Shown here piece after piece: positions 3,096 through 11,143 of a stretch of 64,000 nucleotides of DNA. The DNA is from an uncultured Mycoplasma sp. GTDB taxonomy: Bacteria > Bacillota_I > Bacilli_A > RF39 > UBA660. Both the position numbers and the translations under genes were made by a program. The notes under the pieces were generated by a model. It did no database searches, was not told the DNA's origin, and worked only from the letters and a program-made list of their open reading frames with translations. Each line of letters opens with the position of its first letter. Position 1 is the first letter of the stretch. The stretch spans positions 6,291 through 70,290 of the forward strand of contig CAYXZZ010000001.1 of assembly GCA_964470055.1 (NCBI GenBank), given 5' to 3'.

Positions 3096-3836
3096 ATGGA
3101 ATACATAGTTGATTTTAAACCATACATAAAAGAAAATATTGACATATCTTATTATTCTACAATCGAAGAAAAAATCTCTTCTAATAAAAGCATAACTCAA
3201 GCTGAAGCAGAGAACTTTCTACAAACCATAAGTTATATTATTAGAAAAACTATTAATCCAAATATGGATAATTTTGATTATAAATGTGACTTGGCTCAAA
3301 GTATTTTAGGAAATTATTTAGAAAAAATAAATTGTAAGTATGCACCTTGTGCTACCCAAAACGTAATTACAGCCGGAGTAGAAGGACACAGTTTTACAAC
3401 CGTTATGTTAAATGTTGAAGGCGAAGAAAAAACATACTTAGTAGATCCAACCTACATTCAGTTTTTTCATAAAGATAAATGTCAACTATCCAATTATTTT
3501 ATTTCACCACTATATCCCGATAGGATATTATTAACACCAAATCCAGGTTTCTTTATTCGCCGAGAAGATCAAGAAGCATCAGAATTTCTACTTAAATATG
3601 GTTATATTGAATTAACAGAAGAATATGCACGGATGTATGGAGATAGTTTTTTGAATACTAAAACAGGTGAAAATCCAAACAATTTAGAATTCAAAACAAT
3701 TCCAGGTAGTGTTTATCAAAATGCTTTTACCAAAGGAAGAGAATCTCTATCAAAAACAGATAGTGAATTAACATTAGAAGAAAAAAATATTACACCATTC
3801 CAAGAACTTTCCAAAACATCTCAAAAAGTAATATAA
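3096..3836 (+). CDS. Transglutaminase-like (papain-fold) cysteine peptidase domain protein
   Basis: A Cys...His...Asp-Pro-Thr arrangement: 'KCDLAQS', 'GHSFTTV', 'YLVDPTY' (the fDPT motif typical of transglutaminase-like cores). No signal peptide. Confidence 0.45.
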   Translation: MEYIVDFKPYIKENIDISYYSTIEEKISSNKSITQAEAENFLQTISYIIRKTINPNMDNFDYKCDLAQSILGNYLEKINCKYAPCATQNVITAGVEGHSFTTVMLNVEGEEKTYLVDPTYIQFFHKDKCQLSNYFISPLYPDRILLTPNPGFFIRREDQEASEFLLKYGYIELTEEYARMYGDSFLNTKTGENPNNLEFKTIPGSVYQNAFTKGRESLSKTDSELTLEEKNITPFQELSKTSQKVI

Positions 3837-3879
3837 GCAATCTACTTTACACTGATTTGACAAATGAGCCAACATATGT

Positions 3880-4175
3880 TATAATTAAGGAGCATTGATG
3901 AGGAAAAGTACCTTTAATGCTTATAACAGTGAGTTGGGTATAGTGTGAACCAATTATAAGTGTATTGAGAAAGAACACCTCGGAGCAAACTACCGAAAAG
4001 AGAAATCTTAGTAGACTAGTTCGGAAAGCAATCCGTTATCACATTGCTATGCTTGTTAGAGCAGAAAAAGAGATTACTGAATTAAAAGTTAGTATAACTT
4101 TAGTAATAAATTAAGGTGGCACCGCGGATACCCGTATTCGTCCTTATTTGTAGGATGATACGGGTATTTTTATTT
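3880..4175 (+). promoter_or_regulatory. T-box riboswitch leader with terminator hairpin
   Basis: The conserved T-box sequence 'AATTAAGGTGGCACCGCGG' lies at 4109-4127, immediately 5' of a terminator hairpin (atacccgtat 4128-4137 / atacgggtat 4158-4167, then TTTTT). There is a GA-rich K-turn-like start ('ttgatgagg'). A candidate specifier 'GAAAG-AAC-A' at 3969-3977 would be Asn (AAC), and the UGGC discriminator pairing is compatible with G73. Confidence 0.7.
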
Positions 4176-4197
4176 ACAAAAATAAGGAGGTGACACA

Positions 4198-5049
4198 ATG
4201 AGTAAATTCTTTAAAGAAGAACCAGTAACAACTTTTCCACTAAGTGAATACTTAATCAAAGATAAAGATGAATTTAAAGGATGTATTTTTGATGAAGAAT
4301 CAAGACAACGTAGAACAAAATACATAATGAGCATTTTAGGAGATATTTCATTAGAAAAAGACACATACGAATTATTTATGCGTCAGTTTCAAAGTTTTGG
4401 TGGCAAGTATGATGTTAGAACCAAAAAAGAAACAATCAAAGGTATGTATGATATTTCCAAAAGATATCCCAAGTTAACCTCTTCCGCACTTGAAGAGATT
4501 TGGTTCACTTATATTAAAGACTTATTTGAAGAGTATGCTTTAACTGACATGTTAGAAAAATATCTTGATATTCATGGACAGACAGATGATGCGATTAAAG
4601 CCTACTTAGATTTTGTTGAAACAAAAGCAGTTGAGTTTGAAAAAACATTTAAAGAAGCATCAAAAGAATTAGAGTGCTACAAAGAAGAATATGGAGAAAG
4701 AGTTGTTTCTCATTTACAACATATAATGCAAAGACAGCATATATCTTTAGAACAAATAATAGCCTCTCTTCCAAGTAGTGAATTAATAAAAAAAGATCAA
4801 GAACAACTAAGCGAACTTTCTAAAAAAACCAGAATTTATATGGGCGTTTGTCTTCCACTAAGTCAACAAATGATAGAAAGTTTAGCAACAGGAGAATCAC
4901 TAGATTACTATCCAGAACAACCATCTTATGTAATTAATGGTACATCAAAAGTTGACGCAACATTTACCAAACAACAATTTTTAGATAGTGTCCAAAAGCA
5001 ACAAAAAACTACTGAAGATGCAAGTCCAAAACAATTAAAAAAAATATAA
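4198..5049 (+). CDS. Hypothetical cytoplasmic protein, the first gene after the T-box leader
   Basis: A perfect SD (AAGGAGGTGA) sits 7 nt upstream of the ATG. 283 aa, predicted all-helical, no recognisable motif, no TM. Confidence 0.6.
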   Translation: MSKFFKEEPVTTFPLSEYLIKDKDEFKGCIFDEESRQRRTKYIMSILGDISLEKDTYELFMRQFQSFGGKYDVRTKKETIKGMYDISKRYPKLTSSALEEIWFTYIKDLFEEYALTDMLEKYLDIHGQTDDAIKAYLDFVETKAVEFEKTFKEASKELECYKEEYGERVVSHLQHIMQRQHISLEQIIASLPSSELIKKDQEQLSELSKKTRIYMGVCLPLSQQMIESLATGESLDYYPEQPSYVINGTSKVDATFTKQQFLDSVQKQQKTTEDASPKQLKKI

Positions 5050-5062
5050 GGAAGTGATAATT

Positions 5063-5098
5063 ATGTCAGACGACAATAATAACAATAACGCTTCATAA
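5063..5098 (+). CDS. Putative leader peptide MSDDNNNNNAS (five consecutive Asn codons) upstream of asnA
   Basis: The ATG is preceded by GGAAGTGA. Codons AAT AAT AAC AAT AAC are followed by mutually exclusive inverted repeats (5093-5106 / 5124-5136 / 5140-5156). The ORF is only 11 codons and sits in AT-rich low-complexity sequence. Confidence 0.3.
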   Translation: MSDDNNNNNAS

Positions 5099-5224
5099 AA
5101 TAGATATTAAATTTCATTTTAAGTCTATTTTATGAATGCAAATAAAATAGATATCCCTACAAATATCTTAGTTTATTTAAAAGTAAAAACATAATCAATT
5201 AAATTAAGAAAGAAGGAATTTAAA

Positions 5225-6193
5225 ATGAAAAAAAAATTAACATATTTTGAAACAATCACAATGATTGCAGAAACAAAAAAATATTTTGAAAGTCAATTAG
5301 AAACAAGACTAAGTTTAACAAAAGTACCTAGCCCATTATTTGTAAAAACATCATCAGGATTACAAGATGGACTAACAGGAGTAGAAAAAGCCGTAGGTTT
5401 TACCAAAGGAAAAGAACGATTTGAAATAGTTCACTCTCTTGCCAAATGGAAAAGAGAAGCCTTAGGAAAATATAGTTTTCCAACTCATACAGGATTATAT
5501 ACAGATATGAAAGCAATTAGAAAACAAGAAACAGTCGATGAAGTTCATTCTTTATTTGTAGAACAATGGGATTGGGAAAAAGTCATTACTAAAGATGATC
5601 GTACAATTGATTATTTAAAAGACACAGTCAAATCAATTTATAAGGCTATTAGACAAACATCAGTTTATTTAAAAACAAAATATCGTTTTTTAACTTTAGA
5701 GTTGCCAAAAACAATCACCTTTATTACTTCTCAAGAACTAGAAGATATGTATCCAGATAAAACTCCCAAAGAAAGAGAAGACATATACACTAAAGAGAAA
5801 AAAGCCGTATTTATTATCGGTATTGGTGATAAGTTAAAATCAGGAATTGAGCACGACTTAAGAAGTCCAGACTATGATGATTGGTCATTAGATGGAGACT
5901 TGCTTGTCTATGACAAAATAATTGATAAAGCAATCGAACTTTCCTCAATGGGAATTAGAGTAGATGAACGATCATTAATTAAACAACTAGAAAAATCTAC
6001 CGCATTAGATAGATTAGAACTTCCATATCATCAAAAAATCATCAAAAAAGAACTTCCATATACAATTGGTGGTGGAATAGGACAATCAAGAATTCTAATG
6101 CTTCTTCTTGAAAAAAACCATATTGCCGAAGTTCAAGCATCTAGTTGGGAAGAAAAAACTTTAAAAGAACTAAAAGACTTAAAACTATTATAA
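5225..6193 (+). CDS. asnA: Aspartate--ammonia ligase (asparagine synthetase A)
   Basis: Strong similarity to E. coli AsnA blocks: 'VHSLAKWKREALG', 'EQWDWEKV', 'RSPDYDDWS', 'SSMGIRVD', 'TIGGGIGQSR'. 322 aa. Confidence 0.9.
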   Translation: MKKKLTYFETITMIAETKKYFESQLETRLSLTKVPSPLFVKTSSGLQDGLTGVEKAVGFTKGKERFEIVHSLAKWKREALGKYSFPTHTGLYTDMKAIRKQETVDEVHSLFVEQWDWEKVITKDDRTIDYLKDTVKSIYKAIRQTSVYLKTKYRFLTLELPKTITFITSQELEDMYPDKTPKEREDIYTKEKKAVFIIGIGDKLKSGIEHDLRSPDYDDWSLDGDLLVYDKIIDKAIELSSMGIRVDERSLIKQLEKSTALDRLELPYHQKIIKKELPYTIGGGIGQSRILMLLLEKNHIAEVQASSWEEKTLKELKDLKLL

Positions 6194-6222: not shown

Positions 6223-6250
6223 AAGGGATCAAATAGATCTCTTTTCTTTT
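6223..6250 (+). terminator. Rho-independent terminator after asnA
   Basis: Stem 'aagggatc'/'gatctctt' (one G-U pair) with loop 'aaata', followed by TTCTTTT. Confidence 0.5.
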
Positions 6251-6443
6251 GCATTAAATAATATCTATTAAACCTAAATAAAAACACAATTATACGAACT
6301 AAAAAGGCAAATCAGCCATAGCCGCAAAAATTAAATAACCCAATAAAAACAGCAGTAAAAATATCAAAGAAATAAAATACAGTAAAAAGAAATCTTTTCT
6401 TCCTAACAATTTATGATATAATTAAAAAAAATAGAGGTGACAT

Positions 6444-7547
6444 ATGGTAACAGAAATAACTAGTAAACAAGAATTATTATCATTAGCAGAACAAGTAGAA
6501 AAAGAAGTAACAAATTTAAAAACGGCCATCGATAGTATGAAAGCAACTCTAAGTGGCATTCCAAATTACGACGGAATAGATGCATCTAGTGCTGCCAATA
6601 TTCTAAGCAGTAACTTAACAAGTATTGCTACCGATGCTGAAACAGCCGCTAAAAATATTAAAAGTTACGCAACAGAAATTAATAATTTTGATGTAGACGA
6701 CTTAACAGCCGAAGCAGAAAATGAAACAGAAACAACACTACCAGAAACAGAGACTACAGTATCTCCTAGTGTAACAACCGGAACAACTCCCCAAACAGAA
6801 ATAACAACACAATCTACAACAACATCAACTACAACAAGTGGTAACTATTATTCTCCAAGTACTTCAACAAGCACTAATACAAATACAAGCACCAACACTA
6901 ACACAAATACAAGTGCTAGTACAATAATAGGTACCGGTGCAAGTGGTATTATCTCTGGAGTTACAAACAATTCATCAAACAATAACACATCAAACAACAC
7001 GTCAAATAACTCATCAGTATCAACTGGAACAGTTCAAACAACTGGACAAACTTCATCAAACGGAAGAACTCAACGCTCAGCATTAACTGATATAGTTATC
7101 ACAGAAGGAGATCCAGATATTGACATAAGTAGATACAGCAACAATCTTGCCAATGGTTTTGAAGTAACTACCGGTAACTTAGCATACGAATTATGCGACG
7201 AAGATGTTGATTTGTTATGTGCAATCGTATCAGCAGAAAGTGATAAGTCTTATGATGATGCCTTAGCAGTAATTACAACTATTCTTAATAGATGTGAGAC
7301 ATCTAACTGGATAACTGCCCACGGTCGCGATCCTATTGCTCAAGCAACAGCAGCCAACCAATTTGTTGTTTATCAACATGGTAGTTATGAAGGATACTTA
7401 AACGGTAACGCCCCAGAAACAGTTGTTCAAGCAGTAAAAGATGCCCTAGCCGGAGTTAGAAACCATAACTATTGCAGTTTTAGGTCAAATGGTTCAACAT
7501 CATACAGTAGTAACATGATTACAGCAACAGGTAATAGATATAAATAA
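6444..7547 (+). CDS. Secreted-effector-like protein: helical N-terminal domain, Thr/Ser-rich linker and C-terminal SleB-type cell-wall hydrolase (Hydrolase_2) domain
   Basis: No Sec signal peptide. A helical N-terminal ~90 aa is followed by ~120 aa of T/S/N low complexity. The C-terminus 'LLCAIVSAESDKSYDDALAVITTILNR...QFVVYQHGSY' matches the SleB/CwlJ cell-wall-hydrolase family pattern. Confidence 0.55.
   Translation: MVTEITSKQELLSLAEQVEKEVTNLKTAIDSMKATLSGIPNYDGIDASSAANILSSNLTSIATDAETAAKNIKSYATEINNFDVDDLTAEAENETETTLPETETTVSPSVTTGTTPQTEITTQSTTTSTTTSGNYYSPSTSTSTNTNTSTNTNTNTSASTIIGTGASGIISGVTNNSSNNNTSNNTSNNSSVSTGTVQTTGQTSSNGRTQRSALTDIVITEGDPDIDISRYSNNLANGFEVTTGNLAYELCDEDVDLLCAIVSAESDKSYDDALAVITTILNRCETSNWITAHGRDPIAQATAANQFVVYQHGSYEGYLNGNAPETVVQAVKDALAGVRNHNYCSFRSNGSTSYSSNMITATGNRYK
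6720..7090 (+). repeat. Low-complexity Thr/Ser/Asn-rich linker with short tandem DNA repeats inside the 6444..7547 CDS
   Basis: TNTNTS-type repeats at protein level and 'acaaatacaagcaccaacactaacacaaatacaagt' at DNA level. This region is prone to length variation. Confidence 0.5.
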
Positions 7548-7631
7548 TGTAAAATTATGTAATATTTCACAAAAAAAACAAACTAGATATTTTTTAATGA
7601 TATAATGAAGAAAATAAAGGAGGAATAAAAA

Positions 7632-7943
7632 ATGAGTATAACAAGTCATGACACAACTCAAATGAGAGATTGGTCAACTACTATGGACAACAATGCCAAC
7701 GACTATGATTCATTAATCAATAGACTATATGTTTTAATTGATTCATTTGTTGGTTCAGAACAATTCAAAGGAGGTTTATCTACAGACTTTGGTGAAAAAG
7801 TATTAAGTCAAAGATCAACTTTTATGAGATATTCAGATACATTTAGAGAGTGTTCCGAATTAATTTCTAGAAGAGCAGCTTCTATTGATAGTGATGAAGA
7901 GGAATTAAAAGCAAGAATCGGAAGACAAAATCCATTAGATTAA
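7632..7943 (+). CDS. Small helical protein (~100 aa), WXG100/T7SS-accessory-like
   Basis: 103 aa, no signal peptide. It is the first gene of a tightly packed five-gene operon, with a 'tgatataat' -10 element and an AAGGAGG SD upstream. Its size and helical character fit T7SS small-partner families. Confidence 0.35.
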   Translation: MSITSHDTTQMRDWSTTMDNNANDYDSLINRLYVLIDSFVGSEQFKGGLSTDFGEKVLSQRSTFMRYSDTFRECSELISRRAASIDSDEEELKARIGRQNPLD

Positions 7944-7962
7944 TTGAAAGGAAGGTTAGATT

Positions 7963-8244
7963 ATGGCAAACGGAATATCAGTAATGAACACCGCTGAAGC
8001 AAGAGCAAAAGCGAGTGAAATGAAAACAATAGCACATGACCTAGAGTCATTATTAAATGATGTATCAAAAAAAATAGAAGAAATTGATAATGTTGATACA
8101 GGTATATATCAAGGTAATAATAAACCTGCTGAACTAAGAGCAGAATTAGATTCATTTAGACAAATATTTAATTTAGCATATGATCAAATAATTAAATCAG
8201 CAGATGATATTACTCTAATTGCAAATACAATGGACCAAGAATAA
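7963..8244 (+). CDS. WXG100 (ESAT-6/EsxA)-like protein
   Basis: 93 aa. The N-terminus 'ISVMNTAEARAKASEM' resembles the EsxA start ('IKMSPEEIRAKSQ'). A central 'YQGNNKPAEL' lies at the WXG position. Confidence 0.5.
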   Translation: MANGISVMNTAEARAKASEMKTIAHDLESLLNDVSKKIEEIDNVDTGIYQGNNKPAELRAELDSFRQIFNLAYDQIIKSADDITLIANTMDQE

Positions 8245-8261
8245 TTATAAGAATATAGGAG

Positions 8262-8561
8262 ATGATTTTTATGACAGATGCCTACAAACATGATCCAGAT
8301 GGAATATCATCAGTAGTAACATCTTTAACAGGATTGTTAAGCGATTACAATGCAAAAATATCAGAACTAAAAAGTTTAGTAGAAAAGATAAATGATTCTT
8401 CCTCATGGAGAGATTTAGACGTAAAAACATCTTTTATTACTACTTGTAATTCTTATCTACAAATTTATAATAACTTAGCAGATAGTATGGAAAAGTATAT
8501 TAATTATCTAAATGGTAAGTCAGCCAGTGCAGATGAACTAGAAAATGCTTTTATGAGGTGA
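8262..8561 (+). CDS. Small helical WXG100-superfamily-like protein
   Basis: 99 aa, no signal peptide, central 'SSWRDLD', in an operon with WXG100 proteins. Confidence 0.35.
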   Translation: MIFMTDAYKHDPDGISSVVTSLTGLLSDYNAKISELKSLVEKINDSSSWRDLDVKTSFITTCNSYLQIYNNLADSMEKYINYLNGKSASADELENAFMR

Positions 8562-8565
8562 TAAA

Positions 8566-8844
8566 ATGGAAAATTCAAATTCACAAACATCAGTATATGT
8601 TGAAACAGATGCGCTAGCCGGTTGGAGTAGCGAAATGACTACTATTAATGAGTCTGCAATTTCTGTTTTAGAGTCATTTGAGACAAAACTTCAAGAATTA
8701 GATAATTATTGGATGGGAAATTCCGCAACAGGCTTTAAAAATGCTACAACTGAACTAATGACGACTGCTAAAAATTGTCATACTAGTATGAAGAATGTTT
8801 CATCATTCTTAAATGAAGTTATAATTACAATGGAAAATGAATAA
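8566..8844 (+). CDS. WXG100 family protein
   Basis: 92 aa with a canonical central W-x-G motif 'YWMGNSATGF' (compare EsxA 'WEGQAF'). Confidence 0.6.
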   Translation: MENSNSQTSVYVETDALAGWSSEMTTINESAISVLESFETKLQELDNYWMGNSATGFKNATTELMTTAKNCHTSMKNVSSFLNEVIITMENE

Positions 8845-8858
8845 CAAGGAGAATCAAT

Positions 8859-10019
8859 ATGGGGTATAGTGTACTAGCAACAAACATTCGAAACAAACTA
8901 ACAGGCTTAGATGATTCAATAACTGCGCTTAATAATGTTTCTTTTGATGGAGTTTGGAAAGGATCTGCTAAAGATTCATTAACCTCATCATTAGAGGATT
9001 TAATAAGTAAGTTAAACATAGAACGTAGTAAAGTAGATGCATATGCTGGATTATTAGATAATTTGCAAGCATACAAAGATAATAAATTAATGATTGCTGC
9101 ACTACAATCTCAGCTATATAGTATTCCCGCTACTGAAGAAAATGCTTATAAAAGATCATATTTGAGCAGTTTAATTCAAGAAAATACTACCGCAAATGAA
9201 CAATTAAAAGTTAGTCTTCAAAATGCGTTTTCATCATTTGGAAGTGTGGGTGTTGAACTAAACTTAGTCACTTATACTGTCCCAACTAATGCTGAATATC
9301 TAGTTAATGTCCAAGAACTTAAGGCAATGTATGATAATAGATGGGGAGATGCAGATGGCATTTCTGGAGAACCATTAACCAAATTAGCAAACGGTGAAAG
9401 CATTTATGATTATTATAACCAAGTTGATGAAAATGGTAATGTCATTGAAGGTTCTGGAAAAGCCTATGTTGAAAGCTTGATAACTAGCATTCAAGAAACA
9501 TCATCAGGAAGAGAAGCAGCAGTTAACTGCGCATTAACTATGTTAAAATTAGCCGCAGATCAAGGTGTAAAACTTGATTATGAACATAAAGGAACAATGG
9601 GGATTGAACCATACGTTCCAACATCCGAAGTAGCAAGTGGAGTAGACTGTAATCCATTCGCATCATGGGTAGTAGATAAAGGAACAGAAAATGGTTTCCA
9701 ATGGCGACCAGTTGGTGAGTTCAAATACGTAGGCGAAACTCTAAGTGATTGGACACAAGCCCAACCAGGAGATGTTTTTGTTAACGATGGCCATGTCGGT
9801 ATAATTATCGAAAACGATCCAGAAACAGGAACATTTACTTGTGCAGAAGCCAGTGGAACGGAAGTAGGTATCATTCTTCAAACAAGATCATACAGTTCAA
9901 TGCAAAGTAAAGGTTACCAAGTTCAAGACATGACAAATGTCTACAATGGTACTGAAGATACTGATCGAGCAATATTCAATCAGTATGTCAACTGGGATAC
10001 CTATGAAAGAAAAGTATAA
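8859..10019 (+). CDS. WXG-type N-terminal domain fused to an NlpC/P60 (papain-like) cell-wall hydrolase domain
   Basis: The N-terminus carries 'VWKGSAKDS' (W-x-G-x-A) and there is no signal peptide. The C-terminus has 'GVDCNPFASWV' (catalytic Cys block) and 'GDVFVNDGHVGIII' (His block). Confidence 0.6.
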   Translation: MGYSVLATNIRNKLTGLDDSITALNNVSFDGVWKGSAKDSLTSSLEDLISKLNIERSKVDAYAGLLDNLQAYKDNKLMIAALQSQLYSIPATEENAYKRSYLSSLIQENTTANEQLKVSLQNAFSSFGSVGVELNLVTYTVPTNAEYLVNVQELKAMYDNRWGDADGISGEPLTKLANGESIYDYYNQVDENGNVIEGSGKAYVESLITSIQETSSGREAAVNCALTMLKLAADQGVKLDYEHKGTMGIEPYVPTSEVASGVDCNPFASWVVDKGTENGFQWRPVGEFKYVGETLSDWTQAQPGDVFVNDGHVGIIIENDPETGTFTCAEASGTEVGIILQTRSYSSMQSKGYQVQDMTNVYNGTEDTDRAIFNQYVNWDTYERKV

Positions 10020-10108
10020 TAAGAAAGGCGCAAGCCTCTTTTTAGTTTGAAAACAAAAGACATCTATGATATATTAAAAGAAATAATAAAGAAACGGAGA
10101 CTTAAAAG

Positions 10109-11143
10109 ATGGGATATAACGCACTAGCAACAACATTAAATAGCAAGAAAACAACCTTTGAAACTTCAATACAAAACATAAAGAACCTTTCATTTGACTC
10201 TATTTGGAGTGGGCAAGCCTATACTAAACTAACAGCAGATTTAACAACTACTATGGAAAATTTAAATACCCAAAAGGCTAACATTGAATCATTTGCCTTT
10301 GCTTTGCAACTACTACAATGTTATAAAAATAATAAAGAAAAGCAAGTTGCTATGCAAAATCAGTTAAGTAGTATTGCCAATACCGCTGAAAATGCAAATG
10401 TTATCTCATCATTAGTAGCCCAAATAAATAACTTTACCACAACCAATGAAAATATAAAACAACGAATTAATACCATTTTCCAATCAATAACACCAATAAA
10501 TTCTACGCTTGACGAAGTGGGATACAAAGTATCTGGCAATTTAGATTACATATTAGATGTCCAAGAATTATATAATTTATTTGCAACTAATCAATTGACT
10601 AAACTACCTGATAGCGGAAATAATAGCCTATATGACTATTACAGTGAAGAAGAAGTAGAACAATATCTCAACGAAATAAAGTCGACTTATTCAGGAAGAG
10701 ATGCGGCTGTTAACTGTGCCCTAGGTATCATGCAACTAGCCGCCAATGTAGGACTAAAACTTGACTATGATTGGGGTGGAGGACACACTGCTGTAACTTC
10801 TAATAATGCTATTGCTACTGGAGTAGATTGTAGTGCTTTTGCTTCATGGGCAATAAATCAAGGATCAACAGATACATTTGAAACAAGAACCACAGGTGGA
10901 TTAATAAGTATTGGAGAAAGAGTAGACTATTCCGAAGCCCAAAAAGGAGACATTCTTGTTTACAATAATGGAGAAAATGGTCACGTAGTAGTCGTTATTG
11001 AAAATAATCCAGAAACACAAACATTTATTGTTGCTGAAGCAGCAGGAAGCGATACCGGTGTCATTCTAAAAGAAAGATCATATTCATCACTTAGTTCAAG
11101 TTCATATCAAGCAAGAGACTTAAGTTCCATTTATAATAACTAA
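10109..11143 (+). CDS. Paralog of 8859..10019: WXG-type N-terminus fused to an NlpC/P60 hydrolase
   Basis: 'SIWSGQAYTKL' WXG motif, 'GVDCSAFASWAI' and 'GDILVYNNGENGHVVVVI'. Same architecture and the same 'MGY.ALAT' start as the previous gene. Confidence 0.6.
   Translation: MGYNALATTLNSKKTTFETSIQNIKNLSFDSIWSGQAYTKLTADLTTTMENLNTQKANIESFAFALQLLQCYKNNKEKQVAMQNQLSSIANTAENANVISSLVAQINNFTTTNENIKQRINTIFQSITPINSTLDEVGYKVSGNLDYILDVQELYNLFATNQLTKLPDSGNNSLYDYYSEEEVEQYLNEIKSTYSGRDAAVNCALGIMQLAANVGLKLDYDWGGGHTAVTSNNAIATGVDCSAFASWAINQGSTDTFETRTTGGLISIGERVDYSEAQKGDILVYNNGENGHVVVVIENNPETQTFIVAEAAGSDTGVILKERSYSSLSSSSYQARDLSSIYNN

Follow-up and report, generated by a model that had tools for sequence, protein, structure and literature searches.

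The 64,000 nucleotides (nt) considered here, referred to below as the window, come from an uncultured Mycoplasma sp. (RF39; UBA660), and correspond to positions 6,291–70,290 of the forward strand of contig CAYXZZ010000001.1 in the assembly GCA_964470055.1. In this AT-rich sequence (29.4% G+C), an operon of approximately 2.4 kb is formed, in order, by a promoter, a T-box leader with an asparagine (Asn) specifier, an open reading frame (ORF) of 283 codons, orf283, a short leader ORF with Asn codons followed by an RNA switch, the aspartate–ammonia ligase gene asnA, and a terminator. A first-pass annotation had reported the T-box and its candidate specifier upstream of the 283-residue protein, which it left without a family, and had suggested that this protein may be induced by Asn starvation, or co-transcribed with asnA.

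The operon and its asparagine T-box

The features of the operon outside the spacer between the two genes are the following, in window coordinates:

3857–3885, + strand: sigma-70-type promoter, TTGACA-17-(TG)TATAAT with the extended TG, matching the consensus at 12 of 12 positions and adjoining the 5' side of the T-box match
3886–4148, + strand: T-box leader (RF00230), with Stem I, the specifier loop, the F-box CCGTTA, Stem III, and the T-box/antiterminator
3974–3976, + strand: specifier codon AAC (Asn), followed by the conserved purine A3977, as placed by the covariance-model alignment
4109–4127, + strand: conserved T-box sequence AATTAAGGTGGCACCGCGG (core AAUUAAGGUGGCACCGCG at 4109–4126), with the UGGC bulge that is the predicted partner of the tRNA acceptor end
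4128–4175, + strand: T-box terminator, with arms ATACCCGTAT (4128–4137) and ATACGGGTAT (4158–4167), then the U-run TTTTTATTT
4198–5049, + strand: orf283, encoding an acidic, cytoplasmic, mostly helical protein of 283 residues with a single Asn, preceded by the Shine–Dalgarno (SD) sequence AAGGAGG at 4184–4190
5225–6193, + strand: asnA, encoding an aspartate–ammonia ligase of 322 residues (TIGR00669, 334.6 bits against a curated equivalog cut-off of 292.8 bits; PF03590, E 1.9e-94)
6223–6253, + strand: operon terminator, a hairpin at 6223–6243 followed by a T-run, from the promoter/terminator scan

The T-box was called with the Rfam covariance model RF00230, for which the gathering score is 93 bits, and the match at 3886–4148 scores 105.8 bits (E 2.4e-22) over model positions 1–219, full-length and untruncated, which bears out the T-box of the first-pass annotation. 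This is the sole Rfam family detected across the window, and the T-box itself is an ordinary member of it. The terminator overlaps the 3' strand of the antiterminator, so that the two structures are mutually exclusive. The terminator arms covary across loci (ACCCGTAT/ATACGGGT, ACCTGTAT/ATACAGGT, ACCCATG/ATGGGT), as does the closing helix of Stem I (GAGG/CCTC, GGAG/CTCC, GGGG/CCCC).

The related loci, numbered here with the prefix L, were collected by a genome scan with the ORF283 protein, which returned 11 loci, and by a DNA pattern drawn from the invariant blocks of the spacer, which, together with contig look-ups, added loci from metagenomes. The metagenome scan gave 38 matches, about half of which were chance AT-rich matches without asnA, and were dropped. 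Orthologous T-boxes with AAC are present in 30 loci beyond the window, in both genomes and metagenomes, which makes 31 in all.

The specifier region, GAAAG-AAC-A, followed by the closing-helix strand CCUC, aligns to the RF00230 model in such a way that AAC occupies the specifier slot, and the Asn codon that had been proposed as a candidate is thus retained, with no other codon placed there by the model. The loop is rich in A, and the neighbouring triplets (GAA, AAA, AGA) are also sense codons, any of which might be read in place of AAC, so that a different tRNA would be sensed; partial cross-induction between Lys and Asn T-boxes has also been reported (PMC2916919). This alternative is nevertheless extremely improbable, given that the register of the model sets AAC immediately before the conserved purine and the closing helix, that AAC is invariant in 31 of 31 leaders (the base after the codon being A, but C in L006), that the downstream cargo is all related to Asn (asnA, asnS, and the Asn-codon leader), and that the encoded proteins are depleted specifically in Asn.

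The start of asnA lies exactly 175 nt past the stop codon of orf283, the distance given in the first-pass annotation, and its identity as asnA is confirmed by TIGR00669. The same gene order recurs in about 25 loci of uncultured gut Bacilli. The 11 genome loci come from gut metagenome-assembled genomes that carry the labels Bacilli, Tenericutes, or Mycoplasma. In all of them, the ORF is directly preceded by a T-box scoring above the gathering threshold, and directly followed by asnA, with identities to the window proteins of 78–92% for AsnA and 34–69% for the ORF. The arrangement is conserved in many of the metagenome loci as well, and in these relatives the leader precedes the same ORF and asnA, not unrelated genes. 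In L062, the T-box, ORF, leader, asnA, and asnS (L062 5969–7339) form a single operon.

In eight loci (L015, L017, L020, L022, L029, L034, L036, and L045), the ORF is absent, while the T-box, the leader, and asnA are kept. The Asn T-box of these loci lies 90–300 nt upstream of the Asn leader, with nothing else between them, and in L022, the T-box terminator passes directly into the SD of the leader. A strong SD and a start codon are retained just after the T-box terminator in the ORF-less loci, and in L029, the remnant reads GTG TCA AAA, or MSK, which is the N-terminus of the ORF283 family. These remnants point to the loss of the ORF by deletion, rather than its gain. Frameshifted or shortened copies of the ORF are found in L004, L009, L010, and L011, some of which may be assembly errors; in L010, the ORF (3992–4574) has an internal deletion, the Asn leader and switch are wholly missing, and only 20 nt separate the ORF stop from the asnA start. 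Judged from this distribution, the ORF is ancestral to the clade, yet dispensable, given its loss or degradation in several lineages. As the same T-box directly precedes the asnA leader in the eight ORF-less loci, it is best seen as the T-box of the asnA operon, and appears to belong to asnA as much as to the ORF.

The promoter/terminator scan recovered no terminator between orf283 and asnA, and no + strand promoter-like site reaching 9 of the 12 consensus positions at 5050–5225, while a single terminator follows asnA. The co-transcription that had been raised as one possibility is therefore very probable, and orf283 is very probably both transcribed together with asnA and made under Asn limitation, as far as the layout and composition of the genes indicate. 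The alternative is a locus of two independent units, in which the T-box would serve orf283 only, and asnA would be transcribed from a promoter of its own in the spacer, under the control of the leader alone. Weak promoters can hide in AT-rich spacers, and in L059, a promoter-like sequence and a leader stand directly before the synthetase gene, apart from the ORF. This arrangement is very unlikely here, not only in view of the empty scan of the spacer, but also because the SD of the leader overlaps the stop codon of orf283, the T-box terminator of the ORF-less loci is followed by the leader alone, and AsnA is as free of Asn as the ORF. The locus is almost certainly an operon governed by an Asn T-box.

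Asparagine avoidance and the ORF283 family

Among the 44 ORFs of at least 150 residues in the window, which provide the compositional baseline, the median Asn content is 6.7%, and the two lowest values are those of AsnA (1 of 322 residues, 0.3%) and ORF283 (1 of 283, 0.4%), with the next lowest at 2.8%. The same depletion is found in the relatives, where 21 of 23 AsnA orthologues have no Asn at all, and the asparaginyl-tRNA synthetase (AsnRS) encoded after asnA in L062 has none in 456 residues. Between 0 and 2 Asn are found in 19 of the 22 T-box-linked homologues of ORF283, with a maximum of 7, and 8–18 in the homologues outside T-box control (8–11 in P0079, P0082, P0078, and P0074, and 18 in P0091, which has no T-box). 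This pattern indicates sustained selection against Asn codons in the genes transcribed from the Asn T-box, which would imply that these genes are translated while Asn-tRNA is scarce. The suggestion that the ORF may be induced by Asn starvation gains support from this composition, in that the ORF appears to be built for expression under Asn limitation.

Searches for the ORF283 family recovered 89 clusters among 5.8 billion proteins, and 136 representatives in a profile search of 1.84 billion proteins. Its members have approximately 260–300 residues, and the only name found in any source is "hypothetical protein [Bacilli bacterium]". This small family is confined to one clade of gut Bacilli. That ORF283 is a real protein under purifying selection follows from a ratio of nonsynonymous to synonymous substitution rates (dN/dS) of 0.11–0.42 between related pairs, and a confident AlphaFold2 model, built on a 45-sequence alignment, with a predicted local distance difference test score (pLDDT) of 90 and a predicted template modelling score (pTM) of 0.82. 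The protein had been described as all-helical and cytoplasmic, of which the cytoplasmic location and the mostly helical fold stand, while the model includes two small beta hairpins.

Nothing above the cut-off was found for ORF283 in Pfam, with all 45 members as queries, or in NCBIfam, and a profile search of the PDB gave no matches at E values of up to 10. The best hit of the model in Foldseek searches of the PDB and BFVD had an E value of 0.24, with template modelling (TM) scores below 0.25 overall and below 0.2 in the PDB, and no match was found in PHROGs, in PADLOC, or by tblastn against phage genomes. These results agree with the initial description of a protein that is neither a tRNA synthetase nor a known biosynthetic enzyme. 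Single-sequence matches to the Pfam families BART and TetR_C (E 0.001–0.01, below the cut-off) were set aside, as they are not common to the members of the family.

The genomic company of the family is more informative than its sequence. A gene of this family precedes an asparagine synthetase gene in about 35 of about 41 contexts seen, a count that includes few unlinked contexts, as two further rounds of searching for homologues of the Asn-normal branch yielded no more than 1 and 3 proteins. Three contexts suggest that ORF283 is more than a passenger of the operon. In L055, an Asn T-box is followed by an ORF homologue with a strong terminator of its own, without asnA, so that the ORF is the only cargo of the T-box. 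In L059, the homologue has a normal Asn content and no T-box, and the gene downstream of it encodes an AsnRS-like "asparagine synthetase A" (NF005053, E 4.6e-84). The third context is the L062 operon, which ends in asnS.

The opposite view is that ORF283 is a passenger unrelated to asparagine, which is free of Asn because ribosomes stalled within it would uncouple translation from transcription, or destabilize the mRNA, and so lower the expression of asnA. The absence of the ORF from the eight loci that keep the T-box, leader, and asnA, and its degradation in four others, are what would be expected of a passenger, as are its evolution at a far faster rate than AsnA (with the identities given above), the relaxation to 9 Asn of the L055 copy, which has no asnA downstream, and the position of some homologues beside hydrogenase and phospholipid genes without any connection to Asn. 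The passenger explanation is doubtful, however, given that L055 keeps an Asn T-box, together with a separate terminator, for the ORF alone, that L059 joins an Asn-normal homologue to a different, non-orthologous asparagine synthetase, and that an asparagine synthetase gene follows the ORF in such a large part of the contexts.

A functional tie between ORF283 and Asn synthesis is slightly favoured by this evidence from gene context. The new Asn-metabolism or tRNA-related factor suggested in the first-pass annotation is thus a hypothesis, backed by the contexts of L055, L059, and L062. Several observations count against it. The L055 copy has its 9 Asn despite its Asn T-box, and the ORF, as described above, is dispensable, with eight loci that lack it and four frameshifted or truncated copies. 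Four loci of a single synteny type (P0079, P0082, P0078, and P0074) have neither a T-box nor a nearby asnA, and sit between hydrogenase/GltD-like genes and pssA/psd. In addition, only four residues (P192, D200, P220, and F256) are invariant across the whole family, so that no active site can be named. If the tie is real, ORF283 is most probably a non-enzymatic accessory or regulator linked to ammonia-dependent asparagine synthetases. A more specific proposal, which is offered tentatively, is that ORF283 may be a partner of the class-II-synthetase-like, ammonia-dependent asparagine synthetases (AsnA and the AsnRS-like "AS-A"), perhaps a subunit with a regulatory or channelling role, through which the synthesis of Asn would be coupled to AsnRS or tRNA-Asn, within a two-tier riboregulator (the T-box and a translational switch based on the Asn leader peptide) that would give a very steep, Asn-specific response.

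Other genes are found beside the homologues of the family. In L059, the ORF homologue is preceded, at a distance of 20 nt, by a HIT-family gene (L059 3468–3980), and in L055, the T-box is preceded by a NUDIX gene (L055 3273–3668). The substrates hydrolysed by both families are nucleotide or adenylate compounds, and the neighbourhood may be a coincidence.

The leader ORF and proposed RNA switch upstream of asnA

The spacer between orf283 and asnA contains the following features:

5048–5098, + strand: Asn leader, with the SD AAGGAAGTG (5048–5056, which overlaps the stop codon of orf283) and a leader ORF of 11 codons at 5063–5098, MSDDNNNNNAS
5075–5089, + strand: the leader Asn codons, five consecutive
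5094–5105, + strand: switch segment 1, CATAAAATAGAT
5096–5098, + strand: leader stop codon, inside segment 1
5112–5120, + strand: loop between segments 1 and 2, containing TTTCATTTT
5123–5134, + strand: switch segment 2, GTCTATTTTATG
5143–5154, + strand: switch segment 3, TAAAATAGATAT
5155–5162, + strand: loop between segments 3 and 4, CCCTACAA
5163–5179, + strand: switch segment 4, ATATCT (5163–5168), and a U-rich tail
5202–5227, + strand: translation-initiation region (TIR) of asnA, the invariant block AATTAAGAAAGAAGGAA and the ATG at 5225

The element formed by the leader and the switch is found in 34 loci, always upstream of asnA, and the AAC T-box and the Asn-codon leader occur together in every locus with enough sequence. 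In 31 loci, there are 27 distinct leader DNAs, each with 2–10 Asn codons (for example, MESENDNNNDNNNDNNNKT, MIEENNNTKKA, and MDDNNNR). The Asn runs include 95 AAT and 28 AAC codons, which interchange freely, while the residue is always Asn, and such exclusively synonymous changes are as predicted by selection on the translated codons. The leader peptide is in all likelihood a device by which translation senses Asn-tRNA, to judge from this codon usage. A search of the spacer against Rfam 15, permissive to an E value of 10, gave only chance microRNA-like hairpins with E values above 0.8, and no Asn-codon leader is described either in this release or in the literature searched. The Asn leader and RNA switch, in tandem with the T-box, is an undescribed element, and probably a second Asn sensor, which the first-pass annotation had not noted.

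Aspartate (Asp) codons nearly always stand just before the Asn run (for example, at 5069–5074), and Asp is the second commonest residue of the leaders (27 loci). As Asp is the substrate of AsnA, ribosomes that stall there could provide a second input.

Segment 2 has two possible partners, segments 1 and 3, and segment 3 likewise has two, segments 2 and 4, so the three helices, 1:2, 2:3, and 3:4, are mutually exclusive. In a 25-sequence alignment (A4), with slid partner columns as the control, 98.7% of the positions are paired in helices 1:2 and 3:4, against 31–58% when slid, and 98.2% in helix 2:3, against 37–62%. The one-sided changes in these helices are all from A to G facing U, which keep a G·U pair on this strand only, and these pairing-neutral changes include those among the three alternative leader stop codons (TAA, TGA, and TAG) in segment 1. 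Compensatory double changes affect all three helices in L062, from A-U to G-C in the part shared by 1:2 and 2:3, from C-G to U-A at the base of 1:2, and from U-A to G-C in 3:4. Relative to the first base of segment 1, the stop codon of the leader falls between −3 and +7 nt in all the loci, and the last Asn codon begins 7–13 nt upstream of this segment (7 in the window, and 9–13 in many loci). Given this geometry, a terminating ribosome must open helix 1:2, while a stalled one would largely spare it.

The SD of asnA is located at about 5213–5218, and the leader stop codon (5096–5098) is roughly 115–125 nt away. Two parts of the switch are complementary to this region, which may connect the leader to the translation of asnA. 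Segment 4 is complementary to the region preceding the SD, TCTTAGTTTA with TAAATTAAGA (UCUUAGUUUA with UAAAUUAAGA), and the loop of helix 1:2 is complementary to the region of the start codon, TTTCATTTTAA with TTAAAATGAAA, UUUCAUUUU with AAAAUGAAA, and UUUCAUUUUAA with UUAAAAUGAAA. Each of these complementarities is reached by about 0.1% of the random windows of this genome, and is present in most loci. The predicted minimum-energy fold of the full-length sequence contains helix 2:3 and, on its two sides, these two pairings, which together sequester the SD and the AUG of asnA. In the clade of L019 and L032, it is GAUAAAUCU, which includes segment 1 and the loop, that is complementary to codons 2–5 of asnA (−10 kcal/mol, reached by 1–2.5% of background windows). 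When ribosome-masked states are modelled at equilibrium, the direction of the effect is consistent in 28 of 29 loci, with a small effect, and with loci that are not independent.

The region is probably the front half of an Asn-starvation operon with two sensors in series. At the first of these, by virtue of its family membership, the T-box would bind uncharged tRNA-Asn, with the GUU anticodon pairing with AAC and the acceptor end stabilizing the antiterminator, so that the polymerase would pass 4128–4175 into orf283. Both orf283 and asnA, with one Asn codon each, should be translatable when Asn-tRNA is scarce. At the second sensor, when Asn-tRNA is plentiful, the ribosome would run on to the stop codon within segment 1 and open helix 1:2, leaving segment 2 to pair with segment 3. 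In this 2:3 state, the freed loop UUUCAUUUU and segment 4 would pair with the start codon and the pre-SD region of asnA, and the translation of asnA would be damped. When Asn-tRNA is scarce, the ribosome would stall on the Asn run before helix 1:2, so that 1:2 and 3:4 would persist, with the ribosome-binding site (RBS) of asnA free, and AsnA would be made. If asnA is induced by starvation, the state with 1:2 and 3:4 must be the "on" state, which fits the weakness of 3:4 as a terminator. Modelling and sequence leave a translational read-out with this proposed polarity evenly balanced.

The four-segment layout is also that of classical attenuators, and the switch may be read as a trp-type transcription attenuator, in which a stall on the last Asn codons would mask segment 1 and allow the 2:3 antiterminator to form, while in the other case, helix 3:4 and its U-tail would terminate transcription. 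A U-rich tract, CTTAATTTATTT, follows segment 4 in most loci, and the last Asn codon of the window is 7 nt before segment 1, about half of which the ribosome could cover. In the Bacilli, transcription attenuation by a leader peptide is known from yfmH-yfmG (PMC7491331). This reading is unlikely, all the same, as the 3:4 stem has six AU-rich pairs with a single G-C, and was not called by the promoter/terminator scan, while the U-tract is absent in L001, L002, L007, L008, and L057. The last Asn codon is 9–13 nt away in many loci, which is too far to open a 1:2 helix of 12 to 22 bp, and the conserved geometric feature is the stop codon inside segment 1. The two complementarities to the asnA TIR would, in addition, be left unexplained. 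For the same reasons, that is, the weak stem and the lack of conservation of the U-tract, an intrinsic terminator at hairpin 3:4 was rejected as the main reading.

A number of observations weigh against two sensors coupled to translation as proposed here. Every compensatory double change (four pairs) comes from the single lineage L062. In L019 and L032, both long-range pairings are weak or missing, and the pairing of segment 4 with the pre-SD region is weak in L006, L022, L056, and L057. The predicted equilibrium accessibility of the RBS is 0.46 with a stalled ribosome and 0.34 with a terminating one, which is a small shift, and the minimum-energy fold of the window is the same in both cases. 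The loop CCUACAA of hairpin 3:4 (5156–5162) is invariant in all the attenuators, and the model assigns it no role. Finally, a scan of the window and of 30 loci, aimed at comparing the anticodon and discriminator base of tRNA-Asn with the specifier and the UGGN bulge, recovered no tRNA gene.

A kissing interaction of the CCUACAA loop with UUGUAGG of the T-box terminator (4147–4154), which is invariant and the exact reverse complement, was considered and set aside, as both sides are invariant and offer no covariation by which to judge it, and the T-box side is explained by the terminator pairing. Further variation is found around the switch. In L015, L017, and L020, an extra hairpin of approximately 45 nt, TTGTTGTCGAAATC...GATTTCGTGTCAACAA, follows segment 4, and is absent in the close relatives L034 and L045. 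A different Asn-related leader, with a 37-codon ORF, MKERVLSVVKCFGLIDFLSIDLSIENFNISYNANFTR, precedes the AsnRS-like asparagine synthetase A gene at L059 4843–5147, and its last Asn codons are in the 5' arm of a terminator hairpin, AACGCAAA/TTTGCGTT, followed by ATTTTTG.

Related systems and neighbouring sequences

In operons under T-box control, asnS frequently occupies the second position, and hypothetical proteins regulated by T-boxes are a recognized class (Wels et al. 2008, PMC2494555). The Asn T-boxes of the Firmicutes, upstream of asnS or asnA, share with the present one their hallmarks and their site between a promoter and genes related to amino acids. Here, by contrast, the first cistron belongs to an unannotated family, and a second, probably ribosome-based Asn sensor is present in the same transcript.

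In the anti-TRAP operon of Bacillus subtilis (rtpA/yczA), a T-box and the leader peptide rtpLP sense uncharged tRNA-Trp in tandem, at the levels of transcription and translation (Chen & Yanofsky 2003, 2004, cited in PMC4027176 and PMC10327191), and the mechanisms named are, besides the T-box, a "tRNA-dependent ribosome stalling" in the leader peptide (PMC10327191). By analogy, this operon is the closest precedent for the system described here. In both, the T-box comes before a short leader ORF with cognate codons, and both elements would sense the charging of a single tRNA; the polarity is also alike in the preferred model, with completed translation of the leader repressing the downstream gene, and stalling relieving it. 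The amino acid is Trp, and the product a regulator, in the anti-TRAP case, whereas here they are Asn and a biosynthetic enzyme, and a whole gene of 283 codons is placed between the T-box and the leader. The stop codon of rtpLP, according to Chen and Yanofsky, reportedly lies beside the SD of rtpA, so that the terminating ribosome blocks the SD directly. In the present case, about 125 nt separate the leader stop from the SD of asnA, which is too far for a direct block, and it is for this reason that a refolding of the RNA through three helices is proposed.

The classical attenuators (trpL, hisL, pheL, thrL, and leuL) and yfmH-yfmG (PMC7491331) have the same sequence of SD, ORF of cognate codons, and overlapping helices 1:2, 2:3, and 3:4. 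They differ from the asnA spacer, which has no canonical terminator, and where the control codons are upstream of segment 1, with the stop codon within it. The translational attenuation of the erm and cat genes is similar in that the position of the ribosome on the leader sets the hairpins, and hence the access to the downstream RBS. The signal there is an antibiotic, rather than the supply of an amino acid, and the polarity is the opposite, as stalling here would preserve the ground-state hairpins.

Biosynthetic enzymes are said to use little of the amino acid that they supply, as Alves and Savageau reportedly found in 2005. Compared with such a bias, the present case is extreme, with 0 Asn, across loci, in AsnA proteins of 320–322 residues and in an AsnRS of 456, and it extends to the co-transcribed ORF283.

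What is new at this locus is the Asn leader and RNA switch in tandem with a T-box, the extreme avoidance of Asn across the operon, and an uncharacterised protein family whose context points to Asn synthesis. If the proposed mechanism is true, this would be only the second described case in which a T-box and a leader peptide sense the charging of one tRNA, and the first such tandem for asparagine, and for a biosynthetic enzyme, with a read-out by the refolding of the RNA rather than the occlusion of the SD. The leader and switch, which are absent from Rfam and conserved in at least 34 loci, could become a new RNA family. Whole proteins without Asn in an AT-rich genome may represent a signature that can be used to find starvation-induced genes in uncultured organisms, and the genomic company of ORF283 (AsnA, the AsnRS-like synthetase, AsnRS, and the Asn T-box) provides a testable hypothesis on the supply of Asn in gut Bacilli with reduced genomes.

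The operon is flanked by genes of other kinds. An ORF of 246 residues (3096–3836), directly upstream of the promoter, matches no Pfam or NCBIfam family, and L001 and L003 are the only loci in which it is conserved at this place. Past the asnA terminator, the stretch at 6444–11143 contains a cluster that resembles the substrates of type VII secretion, and that includes a Thr/Ser/Asn-rich protein of 367 residues with a weak match to a cell-wall-hydrolase domain, four helical proteins of approximately 100 residues, one of which is a WXG100 match (8566–8844), a protein of 386 residues without a family, and a protein of 344 residues with a helical N-terminus and an NlpC/P60-CHAP domain. Other RNA genes are found near the operon in the related loci. 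In L010, there is a 6S RNA gene at 7468–7644 (55 bits), and in L007 (7348–7565) and L008 (7359–7576), the asnA operon is followed by a second T-box (96 bits) with a different specifier region, GAAUGGACC, in which the codon is possibly GGA, for glycine.

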